From NCBI GenBank assembly GCA_038316195.1, contig JBBQAJ010000006.1, positions 1 through 33,560 of the forward strand: a stretch of 33,560 nucleotides of DNA. The letters are read 5' to 3'. A program made the position numbers and the translations under genes. Below are positions 3,186 through 22,439 of the stretch, piece by piece (position 1 is the first letter of the stretch; each line of letters begins with the position of its first letter). Source of the DNA: Candidatus Saccharimonadales bacterium. GTDB lineage: Bacteria > Patescibacteriota > Saccharimonadia > Saccharimonadales > JBBQAJ01. The notes beneath the pieces are model-generated. The model did not search any database and had not been told where the DNA came from. It worked only from the letters and a program-made list of their open reading frames with translations.

Positions 3186-3622
3186 AAACTTATTCTGCAA
3201 AACCAACTGACGTAATACGCAAGTGGCACTTAATTGATGCCTCTGAAGCTCCTCTTGGTCGCGTTGCTACTGTTGTTGCAACATTGTTAACCGGCAAGGG
3301 TAAGACGCAGTTTACGCATCATATTGACTGTGGTGATTTTGTTATTATAGTAAACGCTGAAAATCTTGTGGTAACCGGCAACAAGTTAGAAGATAAAAAA
3401 TATTATAAGTACAGTGGATATCCTAGTGGACTTAAAACAACTGCACTTAAAGATTTATTGGCAAAAGATCCTACACAACCTATTTATAAAGCCGTGCGTG
3501 GCATGTTGCCGGTGAATAAATTACGAGCCGAGAGACTAAAAAGACTTAAGATATATTCAGGTGCTCAACATGAACATGATGCACAGAAACCAGAAATATT
3601 ATCAGTGAAAGAGGTTAAATAA
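3182..3622 (+). CDS. rplM: 50S ribosomal protein L13
   Basis: WHLIDA..LGRVA, DCGDFVIIVNA, AVRGMLP; ATGA overlap with rplQ. Confidence 0.98.
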   Translation: MKTYSAKPTDVIRKWHLIDASEAPLGRVATVVATLLTGKGKTQFTHHIDCGDFVIIVNAENLVVTGNKLEDKKYYKYSGYPSGLKTTALKDLLAKDPTQPIYKAVRGMLPVNKLRAERLKRLKIYSGAQHEHDAQKPEILSVKEVK

Positions 3623-4026
3623 TGGCTGAGAATTCAAAACACTACTTTTATGCACTTGGTCGTAGAAAAAGCTCAACAGCAAGAGTCAGGCTTATGAATG
3701 GTAAAGGAACCATAACAATCAATAGTAAACCAGCAAATGAATATTTGTCAGAGAGCAAAACACTACTTCATGAATTAGAAAAACCATTCATAGCACTGGA
3801 AATTCAAAACAAATATGACGTTAGTGCAGTCGTATCTGGGGGAGGACATAGTAGTCAAATAGATGCGATTCGTTTAGGAATAGCAAAAGCTCTAGCAGTT
3901 ATGAACGAAGATCTTAGAAGTACACTTAAAAGAGCTGACTTACTAGGTCGCGACCCAAGAGAAAAAGAGCGCAAGAAATTTGGGCTTAAGGGTGCTCGAA
4001 AACAACGCCAGTTTACTAAACGTTAG
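3622..4026 (+). CDS. rpsI: 30S ribosomal protein S9
   Basis: GRRKSSTARV, GGGHSSQ, RDPREKERKKFGLKGARK..QFTKR. Confidence 0.98.
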   Translation: MAENSKHYFYALGRRKSSTARVRLMNGKGTITINSKPANEYLSESKTLLHELEKPFIALEIQNKYDVSAVVSGGGHSSQIDAIRLGIAKALAVMNEDLRSTLKRADLLGRDPREKERKKFGLKGARKQRQFTKR

Positions 4027-4034
4027 TATAAACT

Positions 4035-4062
4035 TTGACTGTATTGACAATGGTGGTATAAT
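4035..4062 (+). promoter_or_regulatory. Sigma70-type promoter with extended -10 for the aro leader
   Basis: TTGACT 4035-4040, 16-nt spacer, TGgTATAAT 4054-4062; leader ATG 7 nt downstream. Confidence 0.75.
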
Positions 4063-4069
4063 AATTCTT

Positions 4070-4132
4070 ATGTCAACAACTACGCAAAATTGCGCATATT
4101 GGTTTGCTAGCTTTAAAAAGGCGATTGTATAA
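4070..4132 (+). CDS. Putative attenuator leader peptide MSTTTQNCAYWFASFKKAIV (Tyr-Trp-Phe sensing)
   Basis: 20-codon ORF starting at the predicted TSS; tandem TAT-TGG-TTT codons at 4097-4105; overlaps the antiterminator arm GGCGATT 4120-4126. Confidence 0.8.
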   Translation: MSTTTQNCAYWFASFKKAIV

Positions 4133-4156
4133 GTTTAGCATTTAGCAAAACGAAAT

Positions 4157-4181
4157 AAATCGCCAAACAGGCGATTTTTTT
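4157..4181 (+). terminator. Attenuator intrinsic terminator upstream of the DAHP synthase gene
   Basis: AAATCGCC-aaaca-GGCGATTT followed by TTTT; the 5' arm AATCGCC can alternatively pair with 4120-4126. Confidence 0.85.
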
Positions 4182-4197
4182 AATTCAGGAATAATAT

Positions 4198-5463
4198 ATG
4201 TCGATTGAACAATGCATACCATCATCACCAATTTTACAAGAATCATTACGCATAAAAGATGTTCTGTTACCAGCACGCAAAAGAATTGAAGCTGTAAATA
4301 CAATCAATGAAGATCGTGTTCTAAAGAGCATCCGGATTCAATTAGGATACGATTCAGATTTTGCCGATTTGTCTGGACTGATTGATGAAAGAGTTGAAAA
4401 GGTTCCAATGATTACACCTAGAATGGTTGCTGGAGTTCTTCCATTATCAGCTGAGAGTGCAAGAACAACTTTAGAAGCACGAAAAACACTTGCAGACATT
4501 CATAAACATCGTAATTTTAGGTTAGCTGTAGGAATTGGTGAATGTTCTGTTCGTGATCCAGAGATGACGATAGAATATGCAAAAAAAGTTGCAATCTGGC
4601 AAAAACAATTTCCAAATCTTTTTTTGATGCAACGAACATTTTTTGAAAAACCACGCACTCCTAGAAAACTTGGTGATGAAGCACCCTGGAAAGGTTTTAT
4701 GTATGACCCACTTTTAGATGGGTCAAATGACATTAATCTTGGTGTAATTGCAGCAAGAATTATATTATGTACTATTACAAAAATGGGTGTTCCTGCTTTA
4801 AAGGAACAGTTAAATGCACTTACTCCACAGTTTTTAGATGGATTAATTACGCAAGACAATATAGGTGCTAGGAATGTAGGAGACCAGAAATCTATGGAGT
4901 ATGCTTCAGGCACATCAGCGATCGTAGGAGCAAAGAATAATCTTGATGGCGATATTGAGGCAGCAATGCAGGCAGTTGCTTCTGCTCATGGAGAACACGC
5001 TTTTTTGGGAATCGATAATTACGGTAATTTATGTCTAGTGAAAACATTGGGCAATGATACAGCTCATATAATTTTACGTGGAGGCAGCAATGGCCCTAAC
5101 TACGGTAAAGATCACATTCAAGAAGCTCGGGTTTTGGCAGACAAGTATGGTGTCAACTTATCTATAGATATTGATGCTAGCCATGGAAATAGTAACAAAA
5201 TAGCAAAAAATCAAATACAAGTTGCAGAGGACGTTTCAGGGCAAATAGAAGAAGGTGAATTTTCAATAACAGGATTTCAAATGGAAACAAGTTTAGTTGA
5301 AGGATCACAGCCCTTTAAGCTTGGTGAGGCAAAAAACTTAATCTATGGACAAAGTATCACGGATGAAACTCTTGGGATTGCTGATACAGAATATTGTTTG
5401 ACGACACTAAATGAATCAACTGCAAAACGTAGTAAACTAACAATCTCAGATTGGGCAACCTAA
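4198..5463 (+). CDS. 3-deoxy-7-phosphoheptulonate (DAHP) synthase, class I-alpha (AroG/F/H-like), divergent
   Basis: IGECS, FEKPRT, IGAR, GAKN, HIILRGG, DASHGNS, MET, YGQSITD; Cys/His/Glu/Asp metal ligands all present. Confidence 0.9.
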   Translation: MSIEQCIPSSPILQESLRIKDVLLPARKRIEAVNTINEDRVLKSIRIQLGYDSDFADLSGLIDERVEKVPMITPRMVAGVLPLSAESARTTLEARKTLADIHKHRNFRLAVGIGECSVRDPEMTIEYAKKVAIWQKQFPNLFLMQRTFFEKPRTPRKLGDEAPWKGFMYDPLLDGSNDINLGVIAARIILCTITKMGVPALKEQLNALTPQFLDGLITQDNIGARNVGDQKSMEYASGTSAIVGAKNNLDGDIEAAMQAVASAHGEHAFLGIDNYGNLCLVKTLGNDTAHIILRGGSNGPNYGKDHIQEARVLADKYGVNLSIDIDASHGNSNKIAKNQIQVAEDVSGQIEEGEFSITGFQMETSLVEGSQPFKLGEAKNLIYGQSITDETLGIADTEYCLTTLNESTAKRSKLTISDWAT

Positions 5464-6653
5464 TGACAGAGTTAGTTGTTGGTATTCAAGGTGAAAGTGG
5501 TAGTTTTCATGAAGCTGCTGGAAATGAATTCTACACAGATAATGCTGATAGCATTCGCTATGTGCCATTTGCATCGCATGAACTATTACTTCACAATTTA
5601 TTTAACCCTAATAATGAGATTCATGAAGCCGTTATAGCTGTAGATAACAACACTTCTGGTAGAGTTTTAAGTGCAATTAACGCTTTAAGAGAACACCCAG
5701 AAGTTCGTATTATTGGTTCTATTACTTTGAACATAGATCAGCATCTTCTTTTAGCTCCAGGACATGATGAAGCAGGCCTACAAGCTGTTATCTCACAACA
5801 ACCTGCCCTGGACCAGTGCGAAGCTAATATTAAAAATGCAGGCTACAAGGCTATACCATATTACGATACTGCTGCGGCTGCTCGTAGAGTAAGGGATTCA
5901 CGAGGTAGATATCAAGACTTCACTTCTGTTGCTGCAATTGGCTCACGTGTTGCAGGTGATATATTCGGTCTCTCAGTGGGTTCGAAGTTTAACGATATTG
6001 AATATAACGCAACAAAATTTTGGATTTTATCTGATGTTGAAAAAAGTGGTCACGGTAGTCACACGGCATTAACATTTGAAGTTTCAGACCGAGCAGGTTC
6101 ACTGCATCGTGCGATCGGTATATTATCAATGGATTTCGGGTATAATCTTACGGATATTGACAGTCATTTAGCGTCAAAAACAGATCGTAATAGAGCATTT
6201 TTTGCAGAAATTGAGCATGGAGACTCCGATCAGCTAGAGGCTGTAATATCCAAGATGATGGCTGAAGATTTGAACCCACAAGTACTTGGGCAGTACTCAC
6301 CAAAAGGCAGTCCACTAGCTGTTGAAGGTCTGGATCATCATTTACCAGAAGCCCTCAAACATGATGAATGGAGTGGTCGACACGGGTTAAAAAATCCAAA
6401 TGGATCTGCTGTGCTATATGTCGAGACAGATCATACCAGTGGTTCTTTATTTAAAGTACTAGGGAAGCTTGCATCATGTAATCTTGTTGATTTAGGTCGG
6501 CCCACTGTTCCTATAGACCATCAATTTAATAGGGGATTTTACATAGTTATTGATGCAACTACTCAAAGAAATGTCATACAATCAGCGATCGAATCAATCA
6601 GTCAAATGGAAGGTTTTTCGGCAGAAAAAGTAAGTGTTGGAGAGCTAAAGTAA
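5463..6653 (+). CDS. pheA: Prephenate dehydratase (PheA-like) with two ACT-like domains and no chorismate mutase domain
   Basis: QGESGSFHE, QPALDQC, DTAAAA, NATKF (TRF-like); ACT DRAGSL..NLTDIDS and second DHTSGSL..NLVDL; likely start ATG 5463 (TAATG coupling). Confidence 0.8.
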   Translation: MTELVVGIQGESGSFHEAAGNEFYTDNADSIRYVPFASHELLLHNLFNPNNEIHEAVIAVDNNTSGRVLSAINALREHPEVRIIGSITLNIDQHLLLAPGHDEAGLQAVISQQPALDQCEANIKNAGYKAIPYYDTAAAARRVRDSRGRYQDFTSVAAIGSRVAGDIFGLSVGSKFNDIEYNATKFWILSDVEKSGHGSHTALTFEVSDRAGSLHRAIGILSMDFGYNLTDIDSHLASKTDRNRAFFAEIEHGDSDQLEAVISKMMAEDLNPQVLGQYSPKGSPLAVEGLDHHLPEALKHDEWSGRHGLKNPNGSAVLYVETDHTSGSLFKVLGKLASCNLVDLGRPTVPIDHQFNRGFYIVIDATTQRNVIQSAIESISQMEGFSAEKVSVGELK

Positions 6654-7411
6654 TGAGTAAGCAAGAATCAATCGGTATAGTTGGCGCGTATGGTGATTTA
6701 GGGCGACAAATGGCAGTTCAAGCAACTAGCGCGTATTCTGAAGTTTTTCTTTACGACATCCCAAAAGTATCTCCAGTTTCTTCGCTGCAGGGGATAGATT
6801 CTGAACTATCAGCTGAAACATTAAATAATCGTCCACAGATAGCCAACAACCTAGGTGAATTGGTTGAACTTTCTGACATAGTCCACTGGTGTGCTCCTAT
6901 TTCCGGATTAGAGGATTTAGAAAAAATAGATGAAGACACAACATTAATACTACATGATAGTGTTATGCAAAACAGTATTGAGGCAAGTACTGATTTAAAA
7001 CAATGCATAAACGTTTTAGGCACTATTGCGATTGTTCACTGTTTGGTCAATAATCCAAATACCGTCGTAGTTGCATCTGATAGCCTTGGGGCCAATTTAG
7101 CATGGAATCATTTTATAACATTGGGGTTAAGTCCTATTTATAAAACAGTAAAAGAACACGATACTGCAATGGCTCAGAGTCAGGGCGTTTTTGCACTAAA
7201 CATTTTGAGACATTATGCAGATTTGAAACAACTACAGTCTATTGGATTATTAACGCAATCATCGCTGGAATTTCTTCATGCCATGGAAGCGCGTGTTTCT
7301 AGATGGACGCCTGTAACTTTAAAAGCTATTCTAAGTAATCCAGAATTGAATGCTAGCCCACAAGTTACGCTAGTAGAAATTGATGATTTTATTTCTGAAC
7401 ATTATCACTAA
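6653..7411 (+). CDS. Prephenate/arogenate dehydrogenase (TyrA-like), divergent
   Basis: Rossmann IGIVGAYGDLG; KEHDTAMAQSQG matches the TyrA EHDxxMxxxQ motif; TAATG coupling to pheA. Confidence 0.7.
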   Translation: MSKQESIGIVGAYGDLGRQMAVQATSAYSEVFLYDIPKVSPVSSLQGIDSELSAETLNNRPQIANNLGELVELSDIVHWCAPISGLEDLEKIDEDTTLILHDSVMQNSIEASTDLKQCINVLGTIAIVHCLVNNPNTVVVASDSLGANLAWNHFITLGLSPIYKTVKEHDTAMAQSQGVFALNILRHYADLKQLQSIGLLTQSSLEFLHAMEARVSRWTPVTLKAILSNPELNASPQVTLVEIDDFISEHYH

Positions 7412-7494
7412 CTATACAAATTATTACGTTGAAATATATAATAGATGCATAAAGAAATATGAAGTAGGTTTTCTGAACCTATATCCTTCATAAG

Positions 7495-7524
7495 TTGACA
7501 TAGAAATTGACAATGTGATAGTAT
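7495..7524 (+). promoter_or_regulatory. Sigma70-type promoter with extended -10 for the trp leader
   Basis: TTGACA 7495-7500, 18-nt spacer, TGaTAGTAT 7516-7524; leader ATG 7 nt downstream. Confidence 0.7.
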
Positions 7525-7531
7525 TTTAATT

Positions 7532-7621
7532 ATGTCTAAAATATATGGCAATACAATAAACCGATCGATTAGCACGCAAACGACTTGGCAAAACTCTCAT
7601 AACGTACGGGAGTCAATTTAG
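7532..7621 (+). CDS. Putative trp attenuator leader peptide MSKIYGNTINRSISTQTTWQNSHNVRESI
   Basis: 29-codon ORF starting at the predicted TSS; single TGG at 7586-7588; overlaps the antiterminator arm ACGGGAGT 7606-7613. Confidence 0.72.
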   Translation: MSKIYGNTINRSISTQTTWQNSHNVRESI

Positions 7622-7649
7622 TATAATTTAAAATTAAATATCTAAAAGC

Positions 7650-7674
7650 AATACTCCCGTCAGGGAGATTTTTT
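7650..7674 (+). terminator. Attenuator intrinsic terminator upstream of ORF-trpB-trpA
   Basis: AAT(A)CTCCC-gtca-GGGAGATT followed by TTTT; ACTCCCGT 7653-7660 is the perfect complement of 7606-7613. Confidence 0.8.
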
Positions 7675-7693
7675 AATTTAAGGAGATAAAAAT

Positions 7694-7921
7694 ATGAACG
7701 AAGCAATCAACACATTAGATTATTTCGATAAGTCAACAGACAAATCACAGCAATTAAATGTTGCTACAAAGATTGGAAATATGATTATTCAGAAAACTAA
7801 AATAGAAGAAGCATCATTACTAAATAATGATTATTTCAATGGACGACTACAAGCATCGTTAGCTGAAGAAGATCGTTTTGTGGAATTATTTGGGTACTAT
7901 CCGGGTGGGCTGGGATTATGA
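7694..7921 (+). CDS. Small hypothetical protein (75 aa), first gene of the trpBA operon
   Basis: AAGGAG at 7681-7686; ATGA overlap with trpB; no recognised motif. Confidence 0.75.
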   Translation: MNEAINTLDYFDKSTDKSQQLNVATKIGNMIIQKTKIEEASLLNNDYFNGRLQASLAEEDRFVELFGYYPGGLGL

Positions 7922-9138
7922 TGTCCAATAATAAAAATCAATATTTCGGTAAATATGGTGGACGATATGTACCAGAAATGCTTCAGCAAACGTTAGAAAA
8001 TTTGGCTCAATCATATGACAAATTAAAAAAAGAAACCAGTTTTCAAAATGAATTGTTTGATTTACAAACTAAATTTAACAATAGACCGACACCATTAGTT
8101 TTTGCAGAGAACCTAACTAATAAATTAGGGGGTGCACAAATCTACCTTAAAAATGAAGGAATGAACCATACAGGGGCACACAAGATTAATCATTGCCTTG
8201 GACAAGCTTTAGTAGCAAAAAGACTACAAAAAACCAGACTAATTGCTGAAACGGGTGCAGGACAACATGGTTTAGCGACGGCAACAGTTGCAGCAAAGAT
8301 GGGATTCGAATGCACTATCTATATGGGTGAAATTGATATGGATAGGCAAAGGCCAAATGTAATTCTTATGGAATTACTTGGTGCAAAAGTTGTACCAGTC
8401 AGTTTTGGTTCTAGAACATTGAAAGACGCTGTAACCTCAGCAATGAAAGATCTTTTACAAAATTCAGATATTACACATTACGTAATTGGTTCGTGTCTTG
8501 GACCGGACCCTTATCCACGCATGAACCGTGATTTTCAATCCATAATTGGCAAAGAAATACACAAACAGCTAAAAATCCTACCGGATTATGTAATTGCGTG
8601 TGTTGGGGGTGGTAGTAATGCTCTAGGAGCTTTTACGGAGTTTTTAAAGTACCCATCAGTAAGTCTGGTTGGCGTTGAAGCGGGAGGTATAAGTTCTAAA
8701 ATCGGTCAACACGCGACTCGTTTTCCTGATGCTAAAATCGGAATATTTGAAGGTTATAAATCGTATTTCCTACAAGACAAAAATGGAAACTCCTCCAAAA
8801 CACATAGTATAGCTGCTGGACTCGATTATATTGGCATTGGACCTGAGCTATCTGAACTCCACGACAGTAAGCGAGTTGAATTTGTACATGCCAACGATGA
8901 TGAAGTTTTGGAAGCAGTAAAAACGCTTGCGATAACCGAAGGTATCATTCCTGCTTTAGAGTCAGCTCATGCAGTCGTTCATGCAATAAAAATCGCAAAA
9001 ATTTTGTCAAAGGATAAGAAAATAGTCGTAAATATATCAGGGCGAGGAGACAAAGATATATTTACGCTCGCTAAACATTTTGATGAGCTTAAGTTTACAA
9101 AATTTTTACGAAAGGAGTTAAATCAATATGACAAATAA
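7918..9138 (+). CDS. trpB: Tryptophan synthase beta chain
   Basis: FGKYGGRYVPE, HTGAHKIN (PLP Lys), AETGAGQHG, CVGGGSNA, EGIIPALESAHA, SGRGDKD. Confidence 0.98.
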   Translation: MMSNNKNQYFGKYGGRYVPEMLQQTLENLAQSYDKLKKETSFQNELFDLQTKFNNRPTPLVFAENLTNKLGGAQIYLKNEGMNHTGAHKINHCLGQALVAKRLQKTRLIAETGAGQHGLATATVAAKMGFECTIYMGEIDMDRQRPNVILMELLGAKVVPVSFGSRTLKDAVTSAMKDLLQNSDITHYVIGSCLGPDPYPRMNRDFQSIIGKEIHKQLKILPDYVIACVGGGSNALGAFTEFLKYPSVSLVGVEAGGISSKIGQHATRFPDAKIGIFEGYKSYFLQDKNGNSSKTHSIAAGLDYIGIGPELSELHDSKRVEFVHANDDEVLEAVKTLAITEGIIPALESAHAVVHAIKIAKILSKDKKIVVNISGRGDKDIFTLAKHFDELKFTKFLRKELNQYDK

Positions 9139-9880
9139 AATAATGACGCATGTAGTGGCTGGATATCCTACGCGTCAATTGTGCGTTGAATTACTTCTAG
9201 GTATGCAGAATTCTGGCGCAACAATGGTTGAAATTCAATTTCCTTTTTCAGATCCAAGCGCTGATGGAGAAATAATAATGAAAGCCAACGAAGTTGCTAT
9301 AGGCAATAATATTACAATTAATAATTGCTTCAAAATGATAGAAGTAGCAAATAAAAACGGGTTAAAAATTCCCGTATACGTTATGAGCTACGCGAATAAA
9401 CTATTTCATTTTGGATATAAAAGGTTCTGTCACAACGCAAATAAATATAATGTCTCAGGCATACTTGTTCCAGATTTGCCATTTGATACTTCAGATTATA
9501 TAGACTTACAGAAACATACTAACAGTTACGGGATAGAACTCGTTCCTGTACTATCACCTGGAATTCAAATTGAACGAGTAAACAATTACGAGCTACATAA
9601 GAAAAAGCTTGTCTATATTTCAAGTACTAAAGGAATTACAGGTAATGATCTACATATTCAGCCTGAATTGTTGAGCTTAATCGAAATAGTGAAATCTAAG
9701 TCTAGCTGTAAGATTGCTCTAGGATTTGGGATTCGATCAAACTTACATGTAGAACAAGCTTTAGAGGTAGCTGATATTGCAGTCGTTGGCAGTGAGGTAA
9801 TAAGAAATATTCATAATAATGAAATTGGAGATGCAATTAAGTTAGTCTCTAAACTTGTTTACGGGTCTAAAGACTCCTAA
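9128..9880 (+). CDS. trpA: Tryptophan synthase alpha chain
   Basis: EIQFPFSDPSADG, VPDLP, GITG, GFGI, VVGS; overlaps the trpB end. Confidence 0.95.
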   Translation: MTNKIMTHVVAGYPTRQLCVELLLGMQNSGATMVEIQFPFSDPSADGEIIMKANEVAIGNNITINNCFKMIEVANKNGLKIPVYVMSYANKLFHFGYKRFCHNANKYNVSGILVPDLPFDTSDYIDLQKHTNSYGIELVPVLSPGIQIERVNNYELHKKKLVYISSTKGITGNDLHIQPELLSLIEIVKSKSSCKIALGFGIRSNLHVEQALEVADIAVVGSEVIRNIHNNEIGDAIKLVSKLVYGSKDS

Positions 9881-9914
9881 ATACGGGCGTTTTCTACTAT
9901 ACTAATGAATAACA

Positions 9915-10946
9915 ATGACTAAACAAGTAATCTTGACAGGACTCAGAGCAAATAATGATCTTCACTTGGGAAATTATTTAGGTGCTCTTTTACCAATTGT
10001 AGACTTGGCAAACTCTCAAGCAGGTAAATATCAAATTAATTTATTTGTCCCAGATTTGCACAGTTTCACAACTCCAATAGATCATACAAAGCTATATAGA
10101 CAAATTATTGTTAGTTTAAAGTTTTTTGTTGCAGCTGGGTTAGATATTAATAACAAAGATTTATTTTTATATAGACAAAGCTTTATTCCAGCCCATAGTG
10201 AACTTGCTTGGATATTAAATTGTTTTACAGGCTTTGGTGAACTTACTCGCATGACAGAATTCAAAGATAAATCAGCACGCATTGGGAAAGATCACATAGG
10301 AGTCGGTCAATTTGACTATCCACCACTAATGGCAGCCGATATATTACTGTACGACGCTTTATACGTCCCAGTAGGGGATGACCAACGTCAGCACTTAGAA
10401 TTTACAAGAACTATTGCAGAAAGATTAAATAACAAATTTGGAAAACTATTTACAATTCCAAAATCAACATCCGAACAGCATGTTTTTTTTGGAAATGATC
10501 AAGGTGTTAGGGTTAGGGATTTACAAGAACCTACAAAAAAAATGAGTAAAAGTGATGAAACTGGTAAAGGCGTAATTTTCTTGAGCGACTCTCCTACATT
10601 AGCAAAGAAAAAAATAATGAGCGCAACGACTGACAGTCTTGGAAGAATAGCGTATAACAGAGCTGAACAGCCAGGCTTGACAAATTTAATAGATATGTTG
10701 GCACAAATGACCAATAAAAGCGTAGGTGATATATGCAAAAAATACGTTGGACATGCTCAATATGGACCATTAAAAAGTGAATTAGCCGATGCAATAGCTG
10801 AATTCTTATCTAAATTTCAATCCAAACTAACAAAGGTAGATGAAAAATCACTAATAAGAAAATTACAAGTTAGTGAAGAAGCTATGAATAAACAGGCAAA
10901 TTTAAAACTTATAAAAATTCAACAAGCCGTTGGACTTAGAAAATGA
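9915..10946 (+). CDS. trpS: Tryptophanyl-tRNA synthetase
   Basis: HLGNYLG, YPPLMAADIL, VPVGDDQRQHLE, KMSKS. Confidence 0.97.
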   Translation: MTKQVILTGLRANNDLHLGNYLGALLPIVDLANSQAGKYQINLFVPDLHSFTTPIDHTKLYRQIIVSLKFFVAAGLDINNKDLFLYRQSFIPAHSELAWILNCFTGFGELTRMTEFKDKSARIGKDHIGVGQFDYPPLMAADILLYDALYVPVGDDQRQHLEFTRTIAERLNNKFGKLFTIPKSTSEQHVFFGNDQGVRVRDLQEPTKKMSKSDETGKGVIFLSDSPTLAKKKIMSATTDSLGRIAYNRAEQPGLTNLIDMLAQMTNKSVGDICKKYVGHAQYGPLKSELADAIAEFLSKFQSKLTKVDEKSLIRKLQVSEEAMNKQANLKLIKIQQAVGLRK

Positions 10947-11791
10947 TAACTTCCCCAAAAGTACCAAAAAAAAGACTTGATCATTATCTTGCGGAAAAAC
11001 ACACTGAAATAAGTAGAGCATTTTTACAAAAACTGTGCACAAATAATCAAATATTGGTTAATGGTAATCCAGAGAAATCAGGCTTCAAGCTAAAACCTAC
11101 TGATAAAGTTGAAGTTTTATATGATATCGAAGGTATGGAGAAAATTGAAGATATTGATTTACCAATAATTTATCAGGATGATTATGTTGTTGTAATTAAT
11201 AAACCTACAGGAATTATTAGCCATAGCAGAGGAAAATTTTGGAACGAGCCTTCAGTTGCATCTTTTATTCGCCAATTAACATGCCAACCCGGTAGTAGAG
11301 CTGGTATAGTTCATCGATTAGATCGTGCGACATCGGGGGTTATGATATGTGCAAAAACACAGTCAGCGTTGGAATTTTTGCAAAAAGAATTCGAAAAAAG
11401 GAGAGTTGAGAAAACTTACATAGCGATTGTAAGTGGTCATTTATCACCGAACCAAGCAATTATCGACATGCCCATAGAACGCAACCCTAAAGCTCCATCA
11501 ACATTTCGGGTTGGCTCAAATGGTAAGTCAGCTCAAACATTATACGAAGTTATAAAATCATCAAAAAACTATGATTTAGTACAGCTATTACCGAAAACTG
11601 GTAGAACTCATCAGCTTCGAGTTCATTTACATCAACAAAAACATCCTATTGTTGGAGACACCTTATATGGTGGAGAAATCTATCCGAGACTTATGTTACA
11701 CGCTGAAAAGTTAAAAATAACACTGCCTAATGGAAAAACAAAAATATTTGTAGCACCCATTCCTCCAGAATTTCAGAAACTTGTGAAATGA
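10943..11791 (+). CDS. RluA/RluD-family pseudouridine synthase with S4 domain
   Basis: RLDHYL, INKPTG, GIVHRLDRATSG, TGRTHQLRVH, PIVGDTLYG. Confidence 0.95.
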   Translation: MITSPKVPKKRLDHYLAEKHTEISRAFLQKLCTNNQILVNGNPEKSGFKLKPTDKVEVLYDIEGMEKIEDIDLPIIYQDDYVVVINKPTGIISHSRGKFWNEPSVASFIRQLTCQPGSRAGIVHRLDRATSGVMICAKTQSALEFLQKEFEKRRVEKTYIAIVSGHLSPNQAIIDMPIERNPKAPSTFRVGSNGKSAQTLYEVIKSSKNYDLVQLLPKTGRTHQLRVHLHQQKHPIVGDTLYGGEIYPRLMLHAEKLKITLPNGKTKIFVAPIPPEFQKLVK

Positions 11792-11798
11792 TTGATAA

Positions 11799-12659
11799 AT
11801 GAATAATTTGTTAATACACCCAACTACTAACCATCAAATGGAAACCCTGATTCAAGCCGAACCCCACAGTATATTAATTTATGGCAGTGAAGGGTCTGGT
11901 AAACAAGCTATTGCACAAGTTATAGCTCTTAATGTGCTTGATATTCAAAGCGTTGCAAACCCAAGAATATTGTATATAAAACGAGATGATACAAGTATCG
12001 GAATTGATCAAGTTCGTACAATACGCGAATTCTTGAAACGAAAAACAACAGGAGAAAAAAGCATCCGTAGAATGATAGTGATTATCGACTCACACTTAAT
12101 GACTGATGAAGCTCAGAACGCCATATTAAAAACCTTAGAGGAACCACCAAAAGACACCATGATATTACTTACTGCTGATGACCCGACCAAACTCAAACAT
12201 ACAATACGATCAAGGACGCAACAATTGATAGTGTTACCAGTGTCAAAAGCTGACGCCAAAACTTATTTTACAAATAAAAAATACAAACAACAGGATATCG
12301 ATTCTGCATTTTATATGAGTGATGGACGCGCAGGTTTGATGAGTTCAATATTAAATGAATCTGACACGCATAAGTTAGTTATTGCAATTGCGAATGCAAA
12401 ACAGTTACTTAATCAATCAAAATATGAAAGATTATTAAAAATAGACACAATGATTAAAGACAAAATAAATTTAAAAAGAGATTTAGTTGGCCTTGAAACA
12501 ATAGTTTCGAGTGGAATTAGGCTAGCAGCTGATAAAAATAATGTGGAATTAGTGCGCAAATTTTATTCTATAAGTAAATCAATAGAAAAAACAAAACAAG
12601 AATTACATGAAAACGGTAACCCTAAGCTATTGCTTACAAAACTATTCTTAAATATATAA
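11799..12659 (+). CDS. holB: DNA polymerase III delta' subunit-like clamp-loader protein
   Basis: YGSEGSGK, IDQVR, AQNAILKTLEEPP, TIRSR. Confidence 0.85.
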   Translation: MNNLLIHPTTNHQMETLIQAEPHSILIYGSEGSGKQAIAQVIALNVLDIQSVANPRILYIKRDDTSIGIDQVRTIREFLKRKTTGEKSIRRMIVIIDSHLMTDEAQNAILKTLEEPPKDTMILLTADDPTKLKHTIRSRTQQLIVLPVSKADAKTYFTNKKYKQQDIDSAFYMSDGRAGLMSSILNESDTHKLVIAIANAKQLLNQSKYERLLKIDTMIKDKINLKRDLVGLETIVSSGIRLAADKNNVELVRKFYSISKSIEKTKQELHENGNPKLLLTKLFLNI

Positions 12660-12733
12660 TACATCTATAAACATGAGCTAAATACTCTTCAGATAGATTT
12701 CTTAATTAATGCCTGTATAATAGGAACTATATT

Positions 12734-13387
12734 ATGTATGAATTAATCCTATTGTTGGGATTCGGAATTTTAGCAACGCGTGGCTCGAAATTACGAGAAG
12801 AAGAACTCTCTCCTTTGCCTCGTAAAATTAGCGACAAGCTTGGAAGACTTTGGGATATAGCACATCAGGGTATGCGTGAAAACAGATTTTTAAGAGCCGA
12901 AAAAGCATTGTTATCAATTCTAAAGATTGATGAAAAAAATGCCGCCGCCTATAACAGGTTAGGAATTTTATACGCCAAACAAAAAGAATTTAAAGACGCC
13001 ATCGACTGTTTTGAAATAGCATCCTCAATTGAACCAACAGCTTCATCCTTACACAACCTAGGTCTTATATATTATGAAACTGAAGATTATCCTAGAGCCT
13101 CAACTGCATTCGAACAAGCAATAACACTTGAAGGTGAGTTAGCTGCCAGACACATTGCCTATGCTAAAGTTCAAGAAAAACTTGGAAATAGTAAACTTAT
13201 GTTACAAGAACTAGAAATTGCCGTGGAACTAGAACCAAATAAAGAAAGCTACATGTTACTAATGAATAGCTATAGGAGTAATGATCAAAATGAAAAAGCG
13301 GATTTGATTCAAAATAAAATACAAAAATTAATTACCCCGTCAGGTTCGTCAAAAAGAATTGTTCGACCAAAAAGAGTCGTAATATAA
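12734..13387 (+). CDS. TPR-repeat protein with short N-terminal hydrophobic segment
   Basis: AAYNRLGILYAKQKEFKDAIDCFEIA and SLHNLGLIYYETEDYPRASTAFEQA TPR patterns. Confidence 0.85.
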   Translation: MYELILLLGFGILATRGSKLREEELSPLPRKISDKLGRLWDIAHQGMRENRFLRAEKALLSILKIDEKNAAAYNRLGILYAKQKEFKDAIDCFEIASSIEPTASSLHNLGLIYYETEDYPRASTAFEQAITLEGELAARHIAYAKVQEKLGNSKLMLQELEIAVELEPNKESYMLLMNSYRSNDQNEKADLIQNKIQKLITPSGSSKRIVRPKRVVI

Positions 13388-13393
13388 GTAAGT

Positions 13394-14236
13394 ATGTCAA
13401 TTGATTCAGAAAAAGTAATCATAAACGGTTCTGTGGTCGATAAAAAGTCAGCAGTTATGTCAATAGCTAATAAGGGCTACTTTTTTGATTTCTGTGTATA
13501 TTCAAGTTTAAAAATTGTTCAAGGTAAGTTATTTTTCCCAATATTTCACGCAGAAAGAATCATTGAGTCTGCAAAAATCTTGCAGATTAAAAATGACTAC
13601 AATATATCTAAAATTACAAAATTACTTGAAAAATTTATTGATGCTAATAATTTCGAGAACGCTTTTGTTAGAATGGTCCTCATTGGAGACATAGATGGCG
13701 TTAATAACGCAGATCTGTATATTTATGCCGTAGGTTCACTAACATTCTATCCAGACAAGCTTTATAAAACTGGTGGAAAAGCTATAACATTTTTGGGTGA
13801 AAGATTATTGCCAAAAGCTAAAACTAAAGACCTATTGCTATCTGTTATAGCGTATAGAGAAGCAAAAACTAAGGGAGCATTGGATGCCCTATTAGTGGAT
13901 AATTTGGGGAATATAAGAGAAGGAACAAGATCAAATATATTTGCAATTAAGGGTGACAAGCTTTTTACGCCTCCAGCTGAACTAGCACTCAAGGGTATAG
14001 CGCAAAAAATAGTTATAGAAATTGCCAAAAACTATATGCAAATAGTGCGAACAAACATACATGCAAGTATGCTTGATGAATTTGAAGAAATATTTATAAC
14101 AAATACTACTATGAATGTTATGCCTATCAGTCAGGTTGATGACAAAATTTATAATACTGATTTTATAAAAACAAAAGATTTGCAGAAACGGTTTAAAGAA
14201 TACATTAGAACATATGTTCTAAACAATGAAATGTAA
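13394..14236 (+). CDS. PLP fold-type IV enzyme (IlvE/Dat/PabC family)
   Basis: HAERIIESAKIL, AKT Lys, EGTRSNIF, LKGI, EEIFITNT. Confidence 0.88.
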   Translation: MSIDSEKVIINGSVVDKKSAVMSIANKGYFFDFCVYSSLKIVQGKLFFPIFHAERIIESAKILQIKNDYNISKITKLLEKFIDANNFENAFVRMVLIGDIDGVNNADLYIYAVGSLTFYPDKLYKTGGKAITFLGERLLPKAKTKDLLLSVIAYREAKTKGALDALLVDNLGNIREGTRSNIFAIKGDKLFTPPAELALKGIAQKIVIEIAKNYMQIVRTNIHASMLDEFEEIFITNTTMNVMPISQVDDKIYNTDFIKTKDLQKRFKEYIRTYVLNNEM

Positions 14237-14280
14237 GATTGCTCTACAGGTTAGTTTTTGGTAAACTTCATCGGTATTGT

Positions 14281-14357
14281 GCCACCTTAGCTCAGTTGGT
14301 TAGAGCGACTGTTTTGTAAACAGTAGGTCGTCGGTTCGAATCCGACAGGTGGCTCCA
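14281..14357 (+). tRNA. tRNA-Thr(TGT)
   Basis: GCCACCT/AGGTGGC acceptor; anticodon arm ACTGT-ttTGTaa-ACAGT; GTTCGAATC; encoded CCA. Confidence 0.97.
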
Positions 14358-14361
14358 TTGC

Positions 14362-14447
14362 GCAGGGTTAGTGAAGCGGTCAAACACAACAGACTGTAAA
14401 TCTGTCGGCTTATGCCTTCGTAGGTTCGAATCCTACACCCTGCACCA
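14362..14447 (+). tRNA. tRNA-Tyr(GTA)
   Basis: GCAGGGT/ACCCTGC acceptor; ACAGA-ctGTAaa-TCTGT; long variable arm; CCA. Confidence 0.97.
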
Positions 14448-14709: not shown

Positions 14710-14807
14710 TGGTCATCCCCTTTATTAGATTTATTTAAACAGCCTAGTATTTAAGTTAACACCCTCCTCCCAAATGATGTGCGTAATATTGTTAGCACAC
14801 TTTAAAT

Positions 14808-14850
14808 AGCATAACTATAATGTTTTCGATTGTCTGTGCCCATTATCACG
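14808..14850 (-). promoter_or_regulatory. Candidate class II CRP-type promoter
   Basis: Minus strand CGTGA-taatgg-GCACA (14850-14835) centred at -41.5 relative to -10 TATGCT (14813-14808). Confidence 0.6.
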
Positions 14851-14990
14851 GGCTTTTAGTGTCAAAGTAGTCCTAATTGCCAATATCAATAGCTCCGCGT
14901 CACAAAGTTAAGTTAAACTTATGACTAAAAATATGCTATTGAGTTGTAATTCTTACGAACTTTAAATTGCGAAGTAGTATACTTAAGCTA

Positions 14991-15855: not shown

Positions 15856-16936
15856 GAGTAACCGGCAAAATCGTGGAGGTTTTTAGTCCATTTACTCTCT
15901 GTTAATTAGCAATAAGTAATGTCGTAAGACATTACTTATACATGAAACAACGAGGATTTCGCTACTGCCCCACCTGCAGTACAAAGCTACAAAAGCGTGG
16001 ATTAACAGCTGCTGGTACCCAACGTTGGTTGTGTATTGTTTGCAGCAGGAGTGGTACAAAACCACGGCCAGATTTATCTCAAGCTTTGCTCTTGGAACGG
16101 TTTGTCGCCTGGCTACTAGGGAAACAATCCCAAGCAGACTTACCAGGTTCTGAACGCACATGGCGAGCCCAAACGGCTTGGTGTTGGAAGATTGTGCCGC
16201 CACAAATACACAGTGGCGAGATTTATCCGGTAGTAATCATAGACGGCATCCGGATTGGCAGTACAGTCTGCCTCATTGCTCGTACTCCTGAATACGTCAT
16301 TGGTTGGCACTGGGCACCATATGAATCCAGTGGCACCTGGTCTGAGCTGTTTGACCAGTACCCAGCTCCTAGCTTTGTGGTCTGTGATGGCCAGAAAGGT
16401 ATCTTACTGGGACTTAAGCGATCGTGGCCAACAACGGCAATACAGCGCTGCCATTTCCATGTCTGGCAGAATGTCCGAAGTAAGCTAACTCTGCATCCCC
16501 AAACTGAAGCTGGACAAGATCTCCTACGTCTGACCAGAGGCTTGTGGCAAGTCTACGGTCCAGAGCATATGACAGCTTGGCGGACTGGTTTCAGACTTTG
16601 GGAAGAAATATACTGTGACTTTGTAAAACAACGCACCTATCACCAAGAGCCAACAGCTGGCAGACGACGCTGGTGGTATACCCATGGACGGCTCAGAAGT
16701 GCCTACAACCAACTCAGGAAGTTGCAGGAGGATAACCAATTATTTACGTTCATTCATAACCCAAGAGTACCGATACCTAGAAACACCAATCACATGGAAG
16801 GAGGTATTAACTCCCAGCTCAGAACCAAGCTCAAACTACATCGAGGTATGAACGAAGAGCACCAAAGACGACTGGTTGAATGGTATCTTTACAGTCGAAC
16901 CGAAGACCCAAAACCTCCACGAAATTGCCTATAACC
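15856..16936 (+). mobile_element. IS256-family (IS1249-like) insertion sequence, ~1.08 kb
   Basis: Inverted repeats 15864-15888 and 16905-16929 (21/25 match); direct repeat TTCTTTTCC at 15847-15855 and 16937-16945; visibly higher GC than flanks. Confidence 0.9.
15942..16934 (+). CDS. IS1249-like DDE transposase
   Basis: N-terminal CPTC...GTQRWLCIVC Zn ribbon; IIDG, VVCDGQKG, IQRCHFH, NTNHMEGGINSQL. Confidence 0.93.
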   Translation: MKQRGFRYCPTCSTKLQKRGLTAAGTQRWLCIVCSRSGTKPRPDLSQALLLERFVAWLLGKQSQADLPGSERTWRAQTAWCWKIVPPQIHSGEIYPVVIIDGIRIGSTVCLIARTPEYVIGWHWAPYESSGTWSELFDQYPAPSFVVCDGQKGILLGLKRSWPTTAIQRCHFHVWQNVRSKLTLHPQTEAGQDLLRLTRGLWQVYGPEHMTAWRTGFRLWEEIYCDFVKQRTYHQEPTAGRRRWWYTHGRLRSAYNQLRKLQEDNQLFTFIHNPRVPIPRNTNHMEGGINSQLRTKLKLHRGMNEEHQRRLVEWYLYSRTEDPKPPRNCL

Positions 16937-17330: not shown

Positions 17331-17405
17331 GCCGTCGTAGCTCAGTGGTAGAGCATCGCCATGGTAAGGCGGGGGTCTCGAGTTCAAATCTCGACGACGG
17401 CTCCA
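17331..17405 (+). tRNA. tRNA-Thr(GGT)
   Basis: GCCGTCG/CGACGGC acceptor; TCGCC-atGGTaa-GGCGG; GTTCAAATC; CCA. Confidence 0.95.
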
Positions 17406-20978: not shown

Positions 20979-22187
20979 TCATACCAAAGCCTTTTGTATG
21001 TGGAATTTATACGCAGTCAATAGCTTGTCTGCTGCTTGACTCCAGCTTAATTCGTCTAATTCCATTCTTGAATTTCTTTGCAATGTATCTCGTAGTACAT
21101 CGTTTTTAACGACTGAGGTAATTTGGTTTGCCATTTCACGAATATCCCAAAAATCTACCTTTAAGCAGTTGGCAATAACTTCAGAAACACCGGACTGTTT
21201 ACTGATAAGAGCTGGTGTACCATATCCAATAGATTCAAGTGGAGTTAGCCCAAACGGTTCTGAAACAGAAGGCATAACGAACAAATCTCCAATAGCAAAC
21301 GCATCTCGCCATTGTTTGCCTCGCATAAAACCTACAAAAAGTACATTTTTACTTATTCCCAGTTCTGCTGCTAATTCAATAAGCTCAGTATTTTGCTCCC
21401 CAGAACCAACAACTAGAAATATTGTTTTAGGTGCACTTTCTATTACTGCCTTAGCAGCTTTAAGTAAGTTAGGAAGTCCTTTTTGAATGGTTAATCTTCC
21501 AACATTTACTACGACCCTATAGCCGTGCTGTTTCATTGTTTCAAGGTAACTATAGCTGTTATCTCCGTCGATAGGTAGAATCTCAGATAAATCAACACTG
21601 TTATGAATTATTTCGATCTTATCAAATGGAATTTTATACTCTCTTATTATGGCTTTTTTGGTGTGATTGCTGACGGCAATTATTTTGTCAGCCAACATCA
21701 TTGCGTTATATTCGATTTCTCTAACTAAATGGTTGCCTTCATTTTCTCGTCCAGCCCTGTCCGACTCAATTGAATGAACATGTAAAATTAAAGGTCTGTT
21801 AGATTTTTCTTTTGCACGAAGAGCAGCTCTAAAAGTTAACCAATCGTGAGCGTGAATCAAATCAAAACTAGTCTCATCTACTATTCTGCCTACGGCCTCT
21901 TCGTATATTGTGCTTTGATCAAACAAATCAACCCACTCTGTTTCGCCAGAAATTTTAGTATATTTAAAACTATCATACGGGATACCAGAGTTAATTACAG
22001 TCTTTACGTCTTGAGGGTGAGCTGTATTTATTTTCATAAAATCTATACCATGTTCAGCTGTATATGGCACGACAAATTCAATATCAACGGTTTTTTTAGA
22101 TAACGCTTTGCATAGCTGGTAACATGCCACACCAAGTCCACCACTGTTATAAGGTGGTAATTCCCATCCCAACATTAATATCTTCAT
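20979..22187 (-). CDS. GT4/GT-B glycosyltransferase (glycogen synthase-like)
   Basis: GWELPPYNSGGLG, HAHDW, GRLTIQKG, PSVSEPFGLTPLE. Confidence 0.92.
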   Translation of the reverse strand: MKILMLGWELPPYNSGGLGVACYQLCKALSKKTVDIEFVVPYTAEHGIDFMKINTAHPQDVKTVINSGIPYDSFKYTKISGETEWVDLFDQSTIYEEAVGRIVDETSFDLIHAHDWLTFRAALRAKEKSNRPLILHVHSIESDRAGRENEGNHLVREIEYNAMMLADKIIAVSNHTKKAIIREYKIPFDKIEIIHNSVDLSEILPIDGDNSYSYLETMKQHGYRVVVNVGRLTIQKGLPNLLKAAKAVIESAPKTIFLVVGSGEQNTELIELAAELGISKNVLFVGFMRGKQWRDAFAIGDLFVMPSVSEPFGLTPLESIGYGTPALISKQSGVSEVIANCLKVDFWDIREMANQITSVVKNDVLRDTLQRNSRMELDELSWSQAADKLLTAYKFHIQKALV

Positions 22188-22363
22188 ATTAAGTCGCTAC
22201 CCTCTGCTTTCTTCTTATCTTTATTTAACTTGTATTATAGGTGATAAACGGGGGTAAGCACAACCTTTTATAATTTTAATAATTAGTCCCATGATTGAAT
22301 TGCTTTTATGGTGACAAAGCACCCAAAATCGGCTATGATTACTCTGTTCATAATGTAATTTAT

Positions 22364-22439
22364 AGGGGTATAGCTCAGTTGGTAGAGCACCGGTCTCCAA
22401 AACCGGGTGTCGTAGGTTCGAGTCCTGCTACCCCTGCCA
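22364..22439 (+). tRNA. tRNA-Trp(CCA)
   Basis: AGGGGTA/TACCCCT acceptor; CCGGT-ctCCAaa-ACCGG; GTTCGAGTC; CCA. Confidence 0.97.

Follow-up and report, generated by a model that had tools for sequence, protein, structure and literature searches.

How does a bacterium with a genome of less than 1 Mb match the expression of its amino acid genes to the supply of the amino acids themselves? The question is raised by a 33,560-nucleotide (nt) stretch of DNA from Candidatus Saccharimonadales bacterium (Patescibacteriota; GenBank assembly GCA_038316195.1, contig JBBQAJ010000006.1, positions 1 to 33,560 of the forward strand; hereafter the window), in which two short regions with the same order of parts lie upstream of three genes of aromatic amino acid (aro) type and of trpB, trpA and trpS, respectively. 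We report that these two regions, the aro module and the trp module, are likely to be ribosome-mediated (leader-peptide) transcription attenuators of the three-segment type, carried on probably leaderless transcripts. A first-pass annotation, based on the sequence alone, had proposed two attenuators of one plan that belong to a wider family; our data bear out this central inference, while its suggestions of a duplicated cassette, of an operator in the promoter spacer and of a meaningful ACGCAAA word in both leaders did not hold. The window corresponds to contig C20 of the genome, here denoted G000 (888 kb, 38% G+C, 24 contigs, 98.9% complete), which is known solely from a sediment metagenome assembly; genome sizes vary between 0.6 and 1.6 Mb in all sampled relatives of the order. 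This DNA was detected in two DNA sequencing runs of one sediment study and is next to absent from a further run of the same sample, and no RNA run containing it was found.

Two leader regions on one plan

All parts of the two modules are on the plus strand. The aro module begins with a promoter (4035-4062) comprising a -35-like hexamer at 4035-4040, a 16-nt spacer and an extended -10 at 4054-4062, and the spacer contains a 10-mer (4043-4052) that recurs in the trp promoter. Seven nt after the extended -10 there is an ATG at 4070, the start of a leader open reading frame (ORF) of 20 codons plus stop (4070-4132), which begins ATGTC and has consecutive Tyr, Trp and Phe codons at 4097-4105, i.e. 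one codon per product of the pathway, with the Trp codon at 4100-4102. The final codons of this ORF include what we refer to as arm 1, the 5' half of an antiterminator (4120-4126), which begins 14 nt past the Tyr-Trp-Phe core and 18 nt past the last base of TGG. It is followed by an intrinsic terminator (4157-4181) composed of arm 2 (4158-4164), arm 3 (4170-4176) and a T-run to 4181, which in the terminator scan of 3400-14400 appears as an 8-pair stem (4157-4177) with a T-run. The segments 4120-4126, 4158-4164 and 4170-4176 show three-way complementarity, the arm 1:arm 2 duplex has a predicted energy of -10.2 kcal/mol that none of 300 shuffles equalled, and the ribosome-binding site (approximately 4187-4191) is positioned 3' of the T-run and outside both competing helices.

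The trp module has the same layout. Its promoter (7495-7524) has a -35 hexamer at 7495-7500, the shared 10-mer at 7506-7515 and an extended -10 at 7516-7524, and after 7 nt the ATG at 7532 opens a leader ORF of 29 codons plus stop (7532-7621) that also begins ATGTC and contains a Trp codon at 7586-7588. Arm 1 (7606-7613) lies 18 nt past this codon and ends 5 nt before the stop, and the terminator (7653-7674) consists of arm 2 (7653-7660), a stem formed by 7654-7658 with 7663-7667, and a T-run at 7669-7674. Three-way complementarity is seen between 7606-7613, 7653-7660 and 7663-7667, the arm 1:arm 2 duplex is predicted at -9.5 kcal/mol (0 of 300 shuffles equal it), and the ribosome-binding site (approximately 7680-7685) is again 3' of the T-run and not part of either helix. 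Within 3400-14400 the two promoters, with 11 (aro) and 10 (trp) of 12 consensus matches and a TG each, and the two terminators are the top-scoring sites of their kinds.

Every feature listed in the first-pass annotation was recovered in both modules: the TTGAC(T/A) hexamer, the 10-mer, the extended -10, the 7-nt gap and ATGTC, the 18-nt distance between the last base of TGG and arm 1 (4102 to 4120 and 7588 to 7606), stems that differ in sequence and that each keep the three-way complementarity intact, and terminator tails with GATTTTTT and TTTTTTAATT common to both. The modules share 18 7-mers compared to a mean of 5.6 in shuffled sequences (2 of 1000 shuffles reach 18), a real excess that is due to two blocks, the T-run tail and the 10-mer. 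Words of 10 nt or more in common were seen in 87 of 1000 shuffles (8.7%). T-run terminators with an A/T-rich stretch and a Shine-Dalgarno sequence 3' of them are standard parts in this lineage, and the common blueprint is mostly a matter of such standard parts, or of a regulatory style. The ACGCAAA word to which the first-pass annotation drew attention is indeed in frame as Thr-Gln in both leaders (4082-4088 and 7574-7580), but its offsets from TGG are unequal and pairs of shuffled leader ORFs share a 7-mer in 29% of the trials (P ≈ 0.29); the match is a coincidence.

Both leader transcripts are probably leaderless, since the extended -10 is found exactly 7 nt before the ATG and the distance between -10 boxes and start codons peaks at 6-8 nt genome-wide. 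In 176 of the 734 long ORFs of G000, the first start codon is preceded by a -10 box at a distance of 6-8 nt. The proposed family of leaderless modules with cognate codons exists (see below); leaderless starts as such are ordinary in this genome.

Leaders in related genomes

Homologues of the protein resembling 3-deoxy-D-arabino-heptulosonate 7-phosphate (DAHP) synthase (AroG) were found in 19 of 401 sampled genomes of the order and, with one locus cut at a contig end, 18 were evaluable. At 14 of the 18 aroG loci, distributed across several families, there is a short ORF in which a Trp-Phe core is accompanied by more Phe/Tyr codons; the loci of G297, G183, G199 and G180 have no leader (4/18). 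All 14 leaders have a -10 box 5-11 nt upstream (7 nt being among the spacings found in eight of them) and a GC hairpin with a T-run downstream. All aligned leaders retain the Trp-Phe codon pair, while they range from 20 to 29 codons in length and differ in the rest of their sequence; Phe, Trp and Tyr together account for 79 of 329 residues compared to a background of 8.3%.

The RNA arms are conserved as well. Arm 1 starts 12-14 nt past the aromatic core in 10 of the 14 leaders, and in 12 of them the arm 1:arm 2 duplex is better than 300 shuffles (p ≤ 0.023). The terminator helix covaries across the 14 genomes, with 92.9% of the cells paired, two-sided changes in 4 pairs and no equal among 500 shuffles. 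When arms were swapped, the genomes with divergent stems (G000, G055, G375, G244 and G140) paired best with their own arm 2, and no cross-pairing was detected between aro and trp arms. In the window no leader family reached the gathering threshold of Rfam, tRNAs being the only hits; the best sub-threshold match, full-length to Trp_leader (RF00513) at 4099-4184 with 21.6 bits compared to the threshold of 41 (E 0.44), falls on the aro rather than the trp module.

TrpB was found in 14 of the 401 genomes of the order, and a second sample, taken from the class, gave 8 of 401, six of them new; the comparison of trp upstream regions leaves out G155, G127 and G089. The trp leader was found in five genomes representing three families. 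In G002 and G113 the leader has the same C-terminal motif and stem family as in G000 and is followed by a terminator, and in G113 it is a separate ORF directly 3' of a TrpR-like gene. In G424 and G474 (loci L156 and L155), which belong to another order, the motif constitutes the last 18 residues of a 94-amino acid (aa) protein of the TrpR family (PF01371, 60.6 bits). The gene for this protein is leaderless and is flanked by a tandem CTAG box upstream and a terminator with a G002-type stem downstream; arm 1, again 18 nt past the Trp codon, extends to 2 nt before the stop codon, and the tail of the repressor ORF seems to double as leader peptide. The 18-nt offset between Trp codon and arm 1 is present in four of the five trp-leader genomes, including G002, G424 and G474, and the p values for the trp duplex in the five genomes are 0, 0.017, 0.093, 0.013 and 0.02 (two of the three in the first set at p ≤ 0.023; G424 and G474 both at p ≤ 0.02). 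A rule-based scan gave no trp leader in G519, G488, G566 and G678, and none was found in family f51, whose TrpB proteins carry an N-terminally fused TrpR-like domain and whose -10 is overlapped by a tandem CTAG box. As to these fusions, the TrpB proteins encoded at L032, L034, L035 and L036 (G336, G399, G356 and G257, respectively) are approximately 496-499 aa long and their genes leaderless, and the N-terminal extension of approximately 90 aa matches Trp_repressor (33-39 bits, above cut-off) in the three genomes searched for this family, G336, G257 and G399.

PF01371 is present in G257, G336, G399, G113 and G424, whose trp promoters carry the tandem CTAG box, and was not found in G000 or G002. 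The -10 hexamer of the trp promoter is also used in G002, G424 and the f51 genomes; it is retained in G000, where the CTAG box is absent. Judged from these comparisons, the trp module of G000 looks like the remnant of a trpR-linked attenuator after loss of the repressor. Since no TrpR gene was found in G000 and G002, another control of trp is needed there.

Leader codons follow the downstream genes

If the two modules belong to a family, modules with other codons should precede other biosynthetic operons, as the first-pass annotation had anticipated. When all of G000 was scanned by rule, the aro and trp modules came up again, together with a Pro-codon module on contig C18 (approximately 14755-14898, plus strand), in which an extended -10 and 7 nt are followed by an ORF of 18 codons that has two Pro codons towards its 3' end, an arm 1 that overlaps the stop codon, a terminator and a glutamate-5-kinase-like (proB-like) gene (TIGR01027 at 103 bits, below cut-off). 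Such proB-like genes are present in 27 of the 401 genomes, a Pro-cluster leader was identified by rule at 18 of the 26 loci examined, and the arms of this family show compensating changes. An Arg-codon module on contig C24 (approximately 22172-22342, plus strand) has a 16-codon ORF with two adjacent Arg codons, a -10 approximately 10 nt from the ATG and a terminator, and precedes a 164-aa ORF and argS. Thus, G000 holds at least four such modules (aro, trp, pro and arg).

The codon type of the leader follows the downstream gene. Upstream of aroG, an aromatic cluster was scored by rule at 13 of 18 loci and a Pro cluster at none of the 18, and upstream of the proB-like gene an aromatic cluster was scored at 2 and a Pro cluster at 18 of 26 loci; coming from relatives, these counts are not independent of one another. 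Two further leaderless short ORFs with a hairpin and T-run, on C11 (approximately 9015, plus strand) before a 622-aa ORF and on C8 (approximately 4975, plus strand) before a 91-aa ORF, have no obvious run of cognate codons.

Predicted switching of the two modules

In the mechanism that we propose, transcription would start with the A of the leader ATG or at a neighbouring position and generate an mRNA without a Shine-Dalgarno leader, and a ribosome would load at the 5' end of this mRNA and trail the RNA polymerase. With ample charged tRNA, the ribosome would reach the stop codon, 2-5 nt past arm 1, so that arm 1 would be covered; arm 2 would then pair with arm 3, the terminator would form and transcription would end before the first gene. 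With charged tRNA scarce, the ribosome would stall at the Tyr-Trp-Phe codons (aro) or at the Trp codon (trp) with its front edge just short of arm 1, which lies 14 nt past the aro core and 18 nt past the Trp codon. Arm 1 would thereby be free to pair with arm 2 once this is made, the terminator would not form and the operon would be transcribed. The aro module would in this way report all three aromatic amino acids to the DAHP-synthase-, prephenate-dehydratase- and prephenate-dehydrogenase-like genes, and the trp module would report charged tRNA-Trp to trpBA and trpS.

We folded each leader with the ribosome footprint masked. For aro with the ribosome at the aromatic core, the antiterminator (-15.6 kcal/mol) is still the best fold once the terminator is made, and with the ribosome at the stop codon, where it covers arm 1, the terminator alone forms (-9.9 kcal/mol). 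Without a ribosome, the codon region of aro can pair farther downstream and the terminator wins, as in classical superattenuation. For trp, the antiterminator varies between -12.1 and -14.3 kcal/mol compared to -8.3 kcal/mol for the terminator, and the RNA takes the antiterminated fold without a ribosome; therefore, termination would need translation to the stop codon.

Several observations weigh against attenuation as proposed here. The aro duplex does not pass the shuffle test in G002 (-6.5 kcal/mol, p 0.15) and G336 (p 0.23), and in the MAFFT alignment the aro antiterminator helix is paired in 68.4% of the cells, a value equalled by 299 of 500 column shuffles; this weak score is partly due to the misalignment of four f51 rows and to the fact that most other genomes share one stem sequence. 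The aro leader has an extra Phe codon at 4112-4114, merely 5 nt ahead of arm 1, and a ribosome stalled there would mask arm 1 and favour termination; likewise, the last Pro codon of the pro family abuts arm 1. The Trp codon of the trp leader is its only one, and the known classical leaders have two or more. Neither pathway is complete, and that for aromatic amino acids is patchy: searches of G000, at 98.9% completeness, gave neither a chorismate synthase nor a chorismate-binding (TrpE-type) enzyme. Finally, the generic pattern, in which a short ORF 5-9 nt past a -10 box is combined with a hairpin with a T-run and with arm complementarity, has 10 occurrences in the real genome, and three dinucleotide shuffles gave 3, 4 and 0. 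It is modestly enriched, only about fourfold above the shuffled genomes. The first-pass annotation had held that its pattern would lose its meaning if equally common in shuffled sequence: it is more common in the real genome, but it is not diagnostic on its own. The case instead rests on the cognate codons and on conservation, and on these grounds the modules are real and conserved and most likely functional attenuators.

Alternative explanations

The identical 10-mer at nearly equal positions in the two promoters could be an operator for an aromatic-specific repressor, so that both operons would be controlled chiefly at initiation, whether or not attenuation is added; such an arrangement would resemble TrpR together with trpL in Escherichia coli or LtbR together with trpL in Corynebacterium glutamicum. 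A palindrome takes in nine of the 10 nt, the aro promoters of G002, G007 and G256 carry its first 7 nt at a distance of exactly 7 nt upstream of the -10, and in relatives a tandem CTAG box occupies the equivalent spot of the trp promoter beside TrpR genes. The distribution of the box in G000 speaks against this role. The arrangement TTGACA-N4-TGnTAnnnT, i.e. TTGACA with a 7-nt spacer to the -10, occurs seven times in G000, on the plus strand in the window (4044-4062) and at C7:40615, and on the minus strand (reverse-complement positions) at C7:12727, C10:15229, C10:162959, C14:18127 and C16:3572; neighbouring spacings occur 0-2 times, other spacings outside the canonical 17-18 nt 0-3 times and the canonical ones 15 times. 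Three of the seven copies have an identical 19-nt promoter core, and the seven sites precede unrelated genes such as a Ddl-like gene and several unassigned ORFs. Moreover, the box is not conserved in the trp promoter of the sister genome G002, the palindrome is kept in neither G002 nor G007, no TrpR was found in G000 as described above, and the exact 10-mer has six copies in G000 where approximately 3.4 are expected from base composition, i.e. it is not clearly over-represented in a genome-wide count. We therefore consider an operator unlikely, and the first-pass reading of ATTGACAATG as an aromatic operator is not supported by these sites. Nor can ATTGACAATG work as a second -35, its spacer to the same -10 being just 6-7 nt. 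The proximal TTGACA box is placed one helical turn nearer the -10 than a normal -35; the loci compared in relatives showed it again at the aro promoters alone, which is uninformative. The same part order, the equal 7-nt and 18-nt distances from -10 to ATG and from TGG to arm 1, and two shared 10-nt words might also suggest that the modules are recent duplicates of one cassette, retargeted through changes in stem and codons. This appears highly improbable: no similarity extends beyond the 10-mer and the T-run tail (and words of that length arise in shuffles at the frequency given above), each module has its own orthologues with its own conserved peptide and stem family in distant relatives, the trp leader apparently comes from a trpR-linked attenuator, and the aro leader resides in a conserved rpsI-aroG gap.

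Two other explanations concern what is sensed. The arms could by themselves make a two-state switch, set by an RNA-binding protein, a tRNA or a metabolite (TRAP, T-box, riboswitch), with the short ORFs left untranslated. Apart from the absence of any Rfam family above threshold, it is the reading frame that makes this very unlikely: start codons at a fixed distance from the -10, stop codons before the terminator and cognate codons are conserved, in peptides whose length and remaining sequence vary, and with three to four amino acid specificities on one plan a ribosome as sensor is simpler than several ligand-binding RNAs. Alternatively, the leader peptides might be nascent-chain sensors of the free amino acid, similar to TnaC, rather than gauges of tRNA charging, and a single conserved Trp together with a conserved C-terminal motif next to the stop codon in the trp leader would be in keeping with this. 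However, the conserved C-terminal codons coincide with arm 1, whose role in the RNA switch explains why they are kept; for trpBA and trpS, induction by excess Trp would be senseless; and the terminators in the window are intrinsic, while TnaC control acts via Rho-dependent termination. We give this explanation hardly any credence.

Genes around the modules

The order of genes is rpsI, aro module, three aro-type genes, trp module, 75-aa ORF, trpB, trpA, trpS, an rluA-like and a holB-like gene. The aro module is preceded by rpsI (3622-4026) and followed, on the plus strand, by the DAHP-synthase-like gene (4198-5463; TIGR00034 at 275.9 bits), a prephenate-dehydratase-like gene for 400 aa (5451-6653; PF00800) and a gene for a 252-aa probable prephenate-dehydrogenase-like protein (6653-7411). 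The last assignment is a language-model lead of very high score; the nearest Atlas clusters are prephenate dehydrogenases, and searches of Pfam and NCBIfam gave no match. The DAHP-synthase-like protein has approximately 65 additional N-terminal residues. The sole match to the 5-enolpyruvylshikimate 3-phosphate synthase family in G000, on C17, may be MurA.

Downstream of the trp terminator and also on the plus strand there is a 75-aa ORF with a strong Shine-Dalgarno sequence (7694-7921), which overlaps trpB by 4 nt, followed by trpB (7918-9138), trpA (9128-9880) and trpS (9915-10946). The 75-aa ORF has no Pfam match and is dissimilar both to the 157-aa ORF that takes its place in G002 and to the TrpR-like extension of TrpB in G336. 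No terminator-like site was detected on the plus strand between the trp genes (7694-10946), save a weak one within trpB. As no TrpE-type enzyme was found in G000, trpBA probably serves indole salvage. Elsewhere in the window, four tRNA genes and an IS1249-family transposase gene were found at 14281-14444, 17331-17402, 22364-22436 and 15942-16934.

Regulation in a reduced genome

Gene regulation is barely known in Saccharibacteria and other members of the candidate phyla radiation (CPR), most lineages of which are uncultured, and the modules offer a testable mechanism that needs no dedicated regulator. They also show which genes the cell treats as its answer to a given amino acid shortage, viz. 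orphan pieces of the aromatic pathway, the pair that converts indole to tryptophan and trpS, and the leader codons can be used in the annotation of downstream genes such as those for the 252-aa dehydrogenase-like protein, the fast-evolving ORF before trpB and the divergent proB-like kinase. In the literature outside subscription journals and bioRxiv supplements, we found no published description of leader-peptide attenuation in Saccharibacteria, Patescibacteria or CPR.

We tentatively raise the possibility, which we hold with some reserve, that Saccharibacteria, which have very few transcription factors, run much of their amino acid economy via a "ribulon" of leaderless attenuators, including salvage and partial pathways that draw on host intermediates. 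Two further proposals go with it. One is that the trp attenuator might have arisen from the 3' end of the trpR frame, and in some lineages still be this 3' end, in which case the trp genes that follow would be gated by translation of the C-terminal end of the repressor itself. The other is that TTGACA with the 7-nt spacer might represent a distinct promoter element of the lineage. Both the trpR-tail attenuator and the proximal TTGACA element would be new.

Comparison with known systems

As in the trpL, pheL and pheST leaders of E. coli, terminator and antiterminator are predicted to be mutually exclusive in the two modules and the stop codon is placed such that a terminating ribosome would mask the 5' arm. 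The cognate codons of E. coli trpL precede the 5' arm of the antiterminator by approximately 14 nt, similar to the distance seen here, and as with pheST a tRNA synthetase gene, here trpS, would be under the same control. Unlike the E. coli leaders, the modules would have no 5' untranslated region or Shine-Dalgarno sequence for the leader ORF, they have three segments, and the trp leader has a single Trp codon; in addition, and in contrast to E. coli trpL, the trp module is antiterminated when folded without a ribosome. With the scores given above, the modules are not members of the Rfam Trp_leader family (RF00513).

For the Pro-codon module, mgtP and mgtL of Salmonella are described as short ORFs whose translation affects a downstream attenuator (PMC3641672). 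Those ORFs govern Mg2+ transporter and virulence genes and the ORF is Shine-Dalgarno-led, unlike the module of G000 with its downstream glutamate-5-kinase-like gene. In mgtP and mgtL it is the Pro codons that matter, and with respect to this role they would be the nearest precedent for the Pro-codon module.

For the aro and trp modules together, the nearest precedent would appear to be in C. glutamicum. According to the reports, aroF (DAHP synthase) is there preceded by the aroR leader (Phe-Tyr-Phe) and regulated by ribosome stalling, a separate leader with Trp codons, trpL, precedes the trp genes, and a site for the LtbR repressor is located at the -10 region of both the trpL promoter and the promoter of a DAHP-synthase gene (PMC4046766, PMC3890552, PMC11802643). 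An aromatic-codon leader before a DAHP-synthase gene combined with a separate Trp leader is thus common to both, and the promoter box shared by our modules runs parallel to the LtbR site. Unlike aroR, the core of the aro leader holds all three aromatic codons including Trp, the pathway is incomplete and the host is a Saccharibacterium of approximately 0.9 Mb. No sequence relationship between the leaders was found or tested. Neshat et al. in 2014 are said to have reported the Corynebacterium leaders to be leaderless.

The closest concept appears to be that of the mycobacterial "Cys ribulon", where polycysteine leaderless short ORFs are described in which a stalled ribosome unmasks a sequestered ribosome-binding site (10.1101/834739). 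Going by that description, the systems have in common a leaderless short ORF with cognate codons as the first cistron and several loci that form a regulon read by the ribosome, and they differ in that the modules described here have an intrinsic terminator and a ribosome-binding site outside the competing helices. The mechanism is a classical one and adds no new principle; the value of the present modules lies in a new lineage, in new families of leaders and in their use for annotation, and they extend the "ribulon" idea from Actinobacteria to a lineage of epibionts with reduced genomes.

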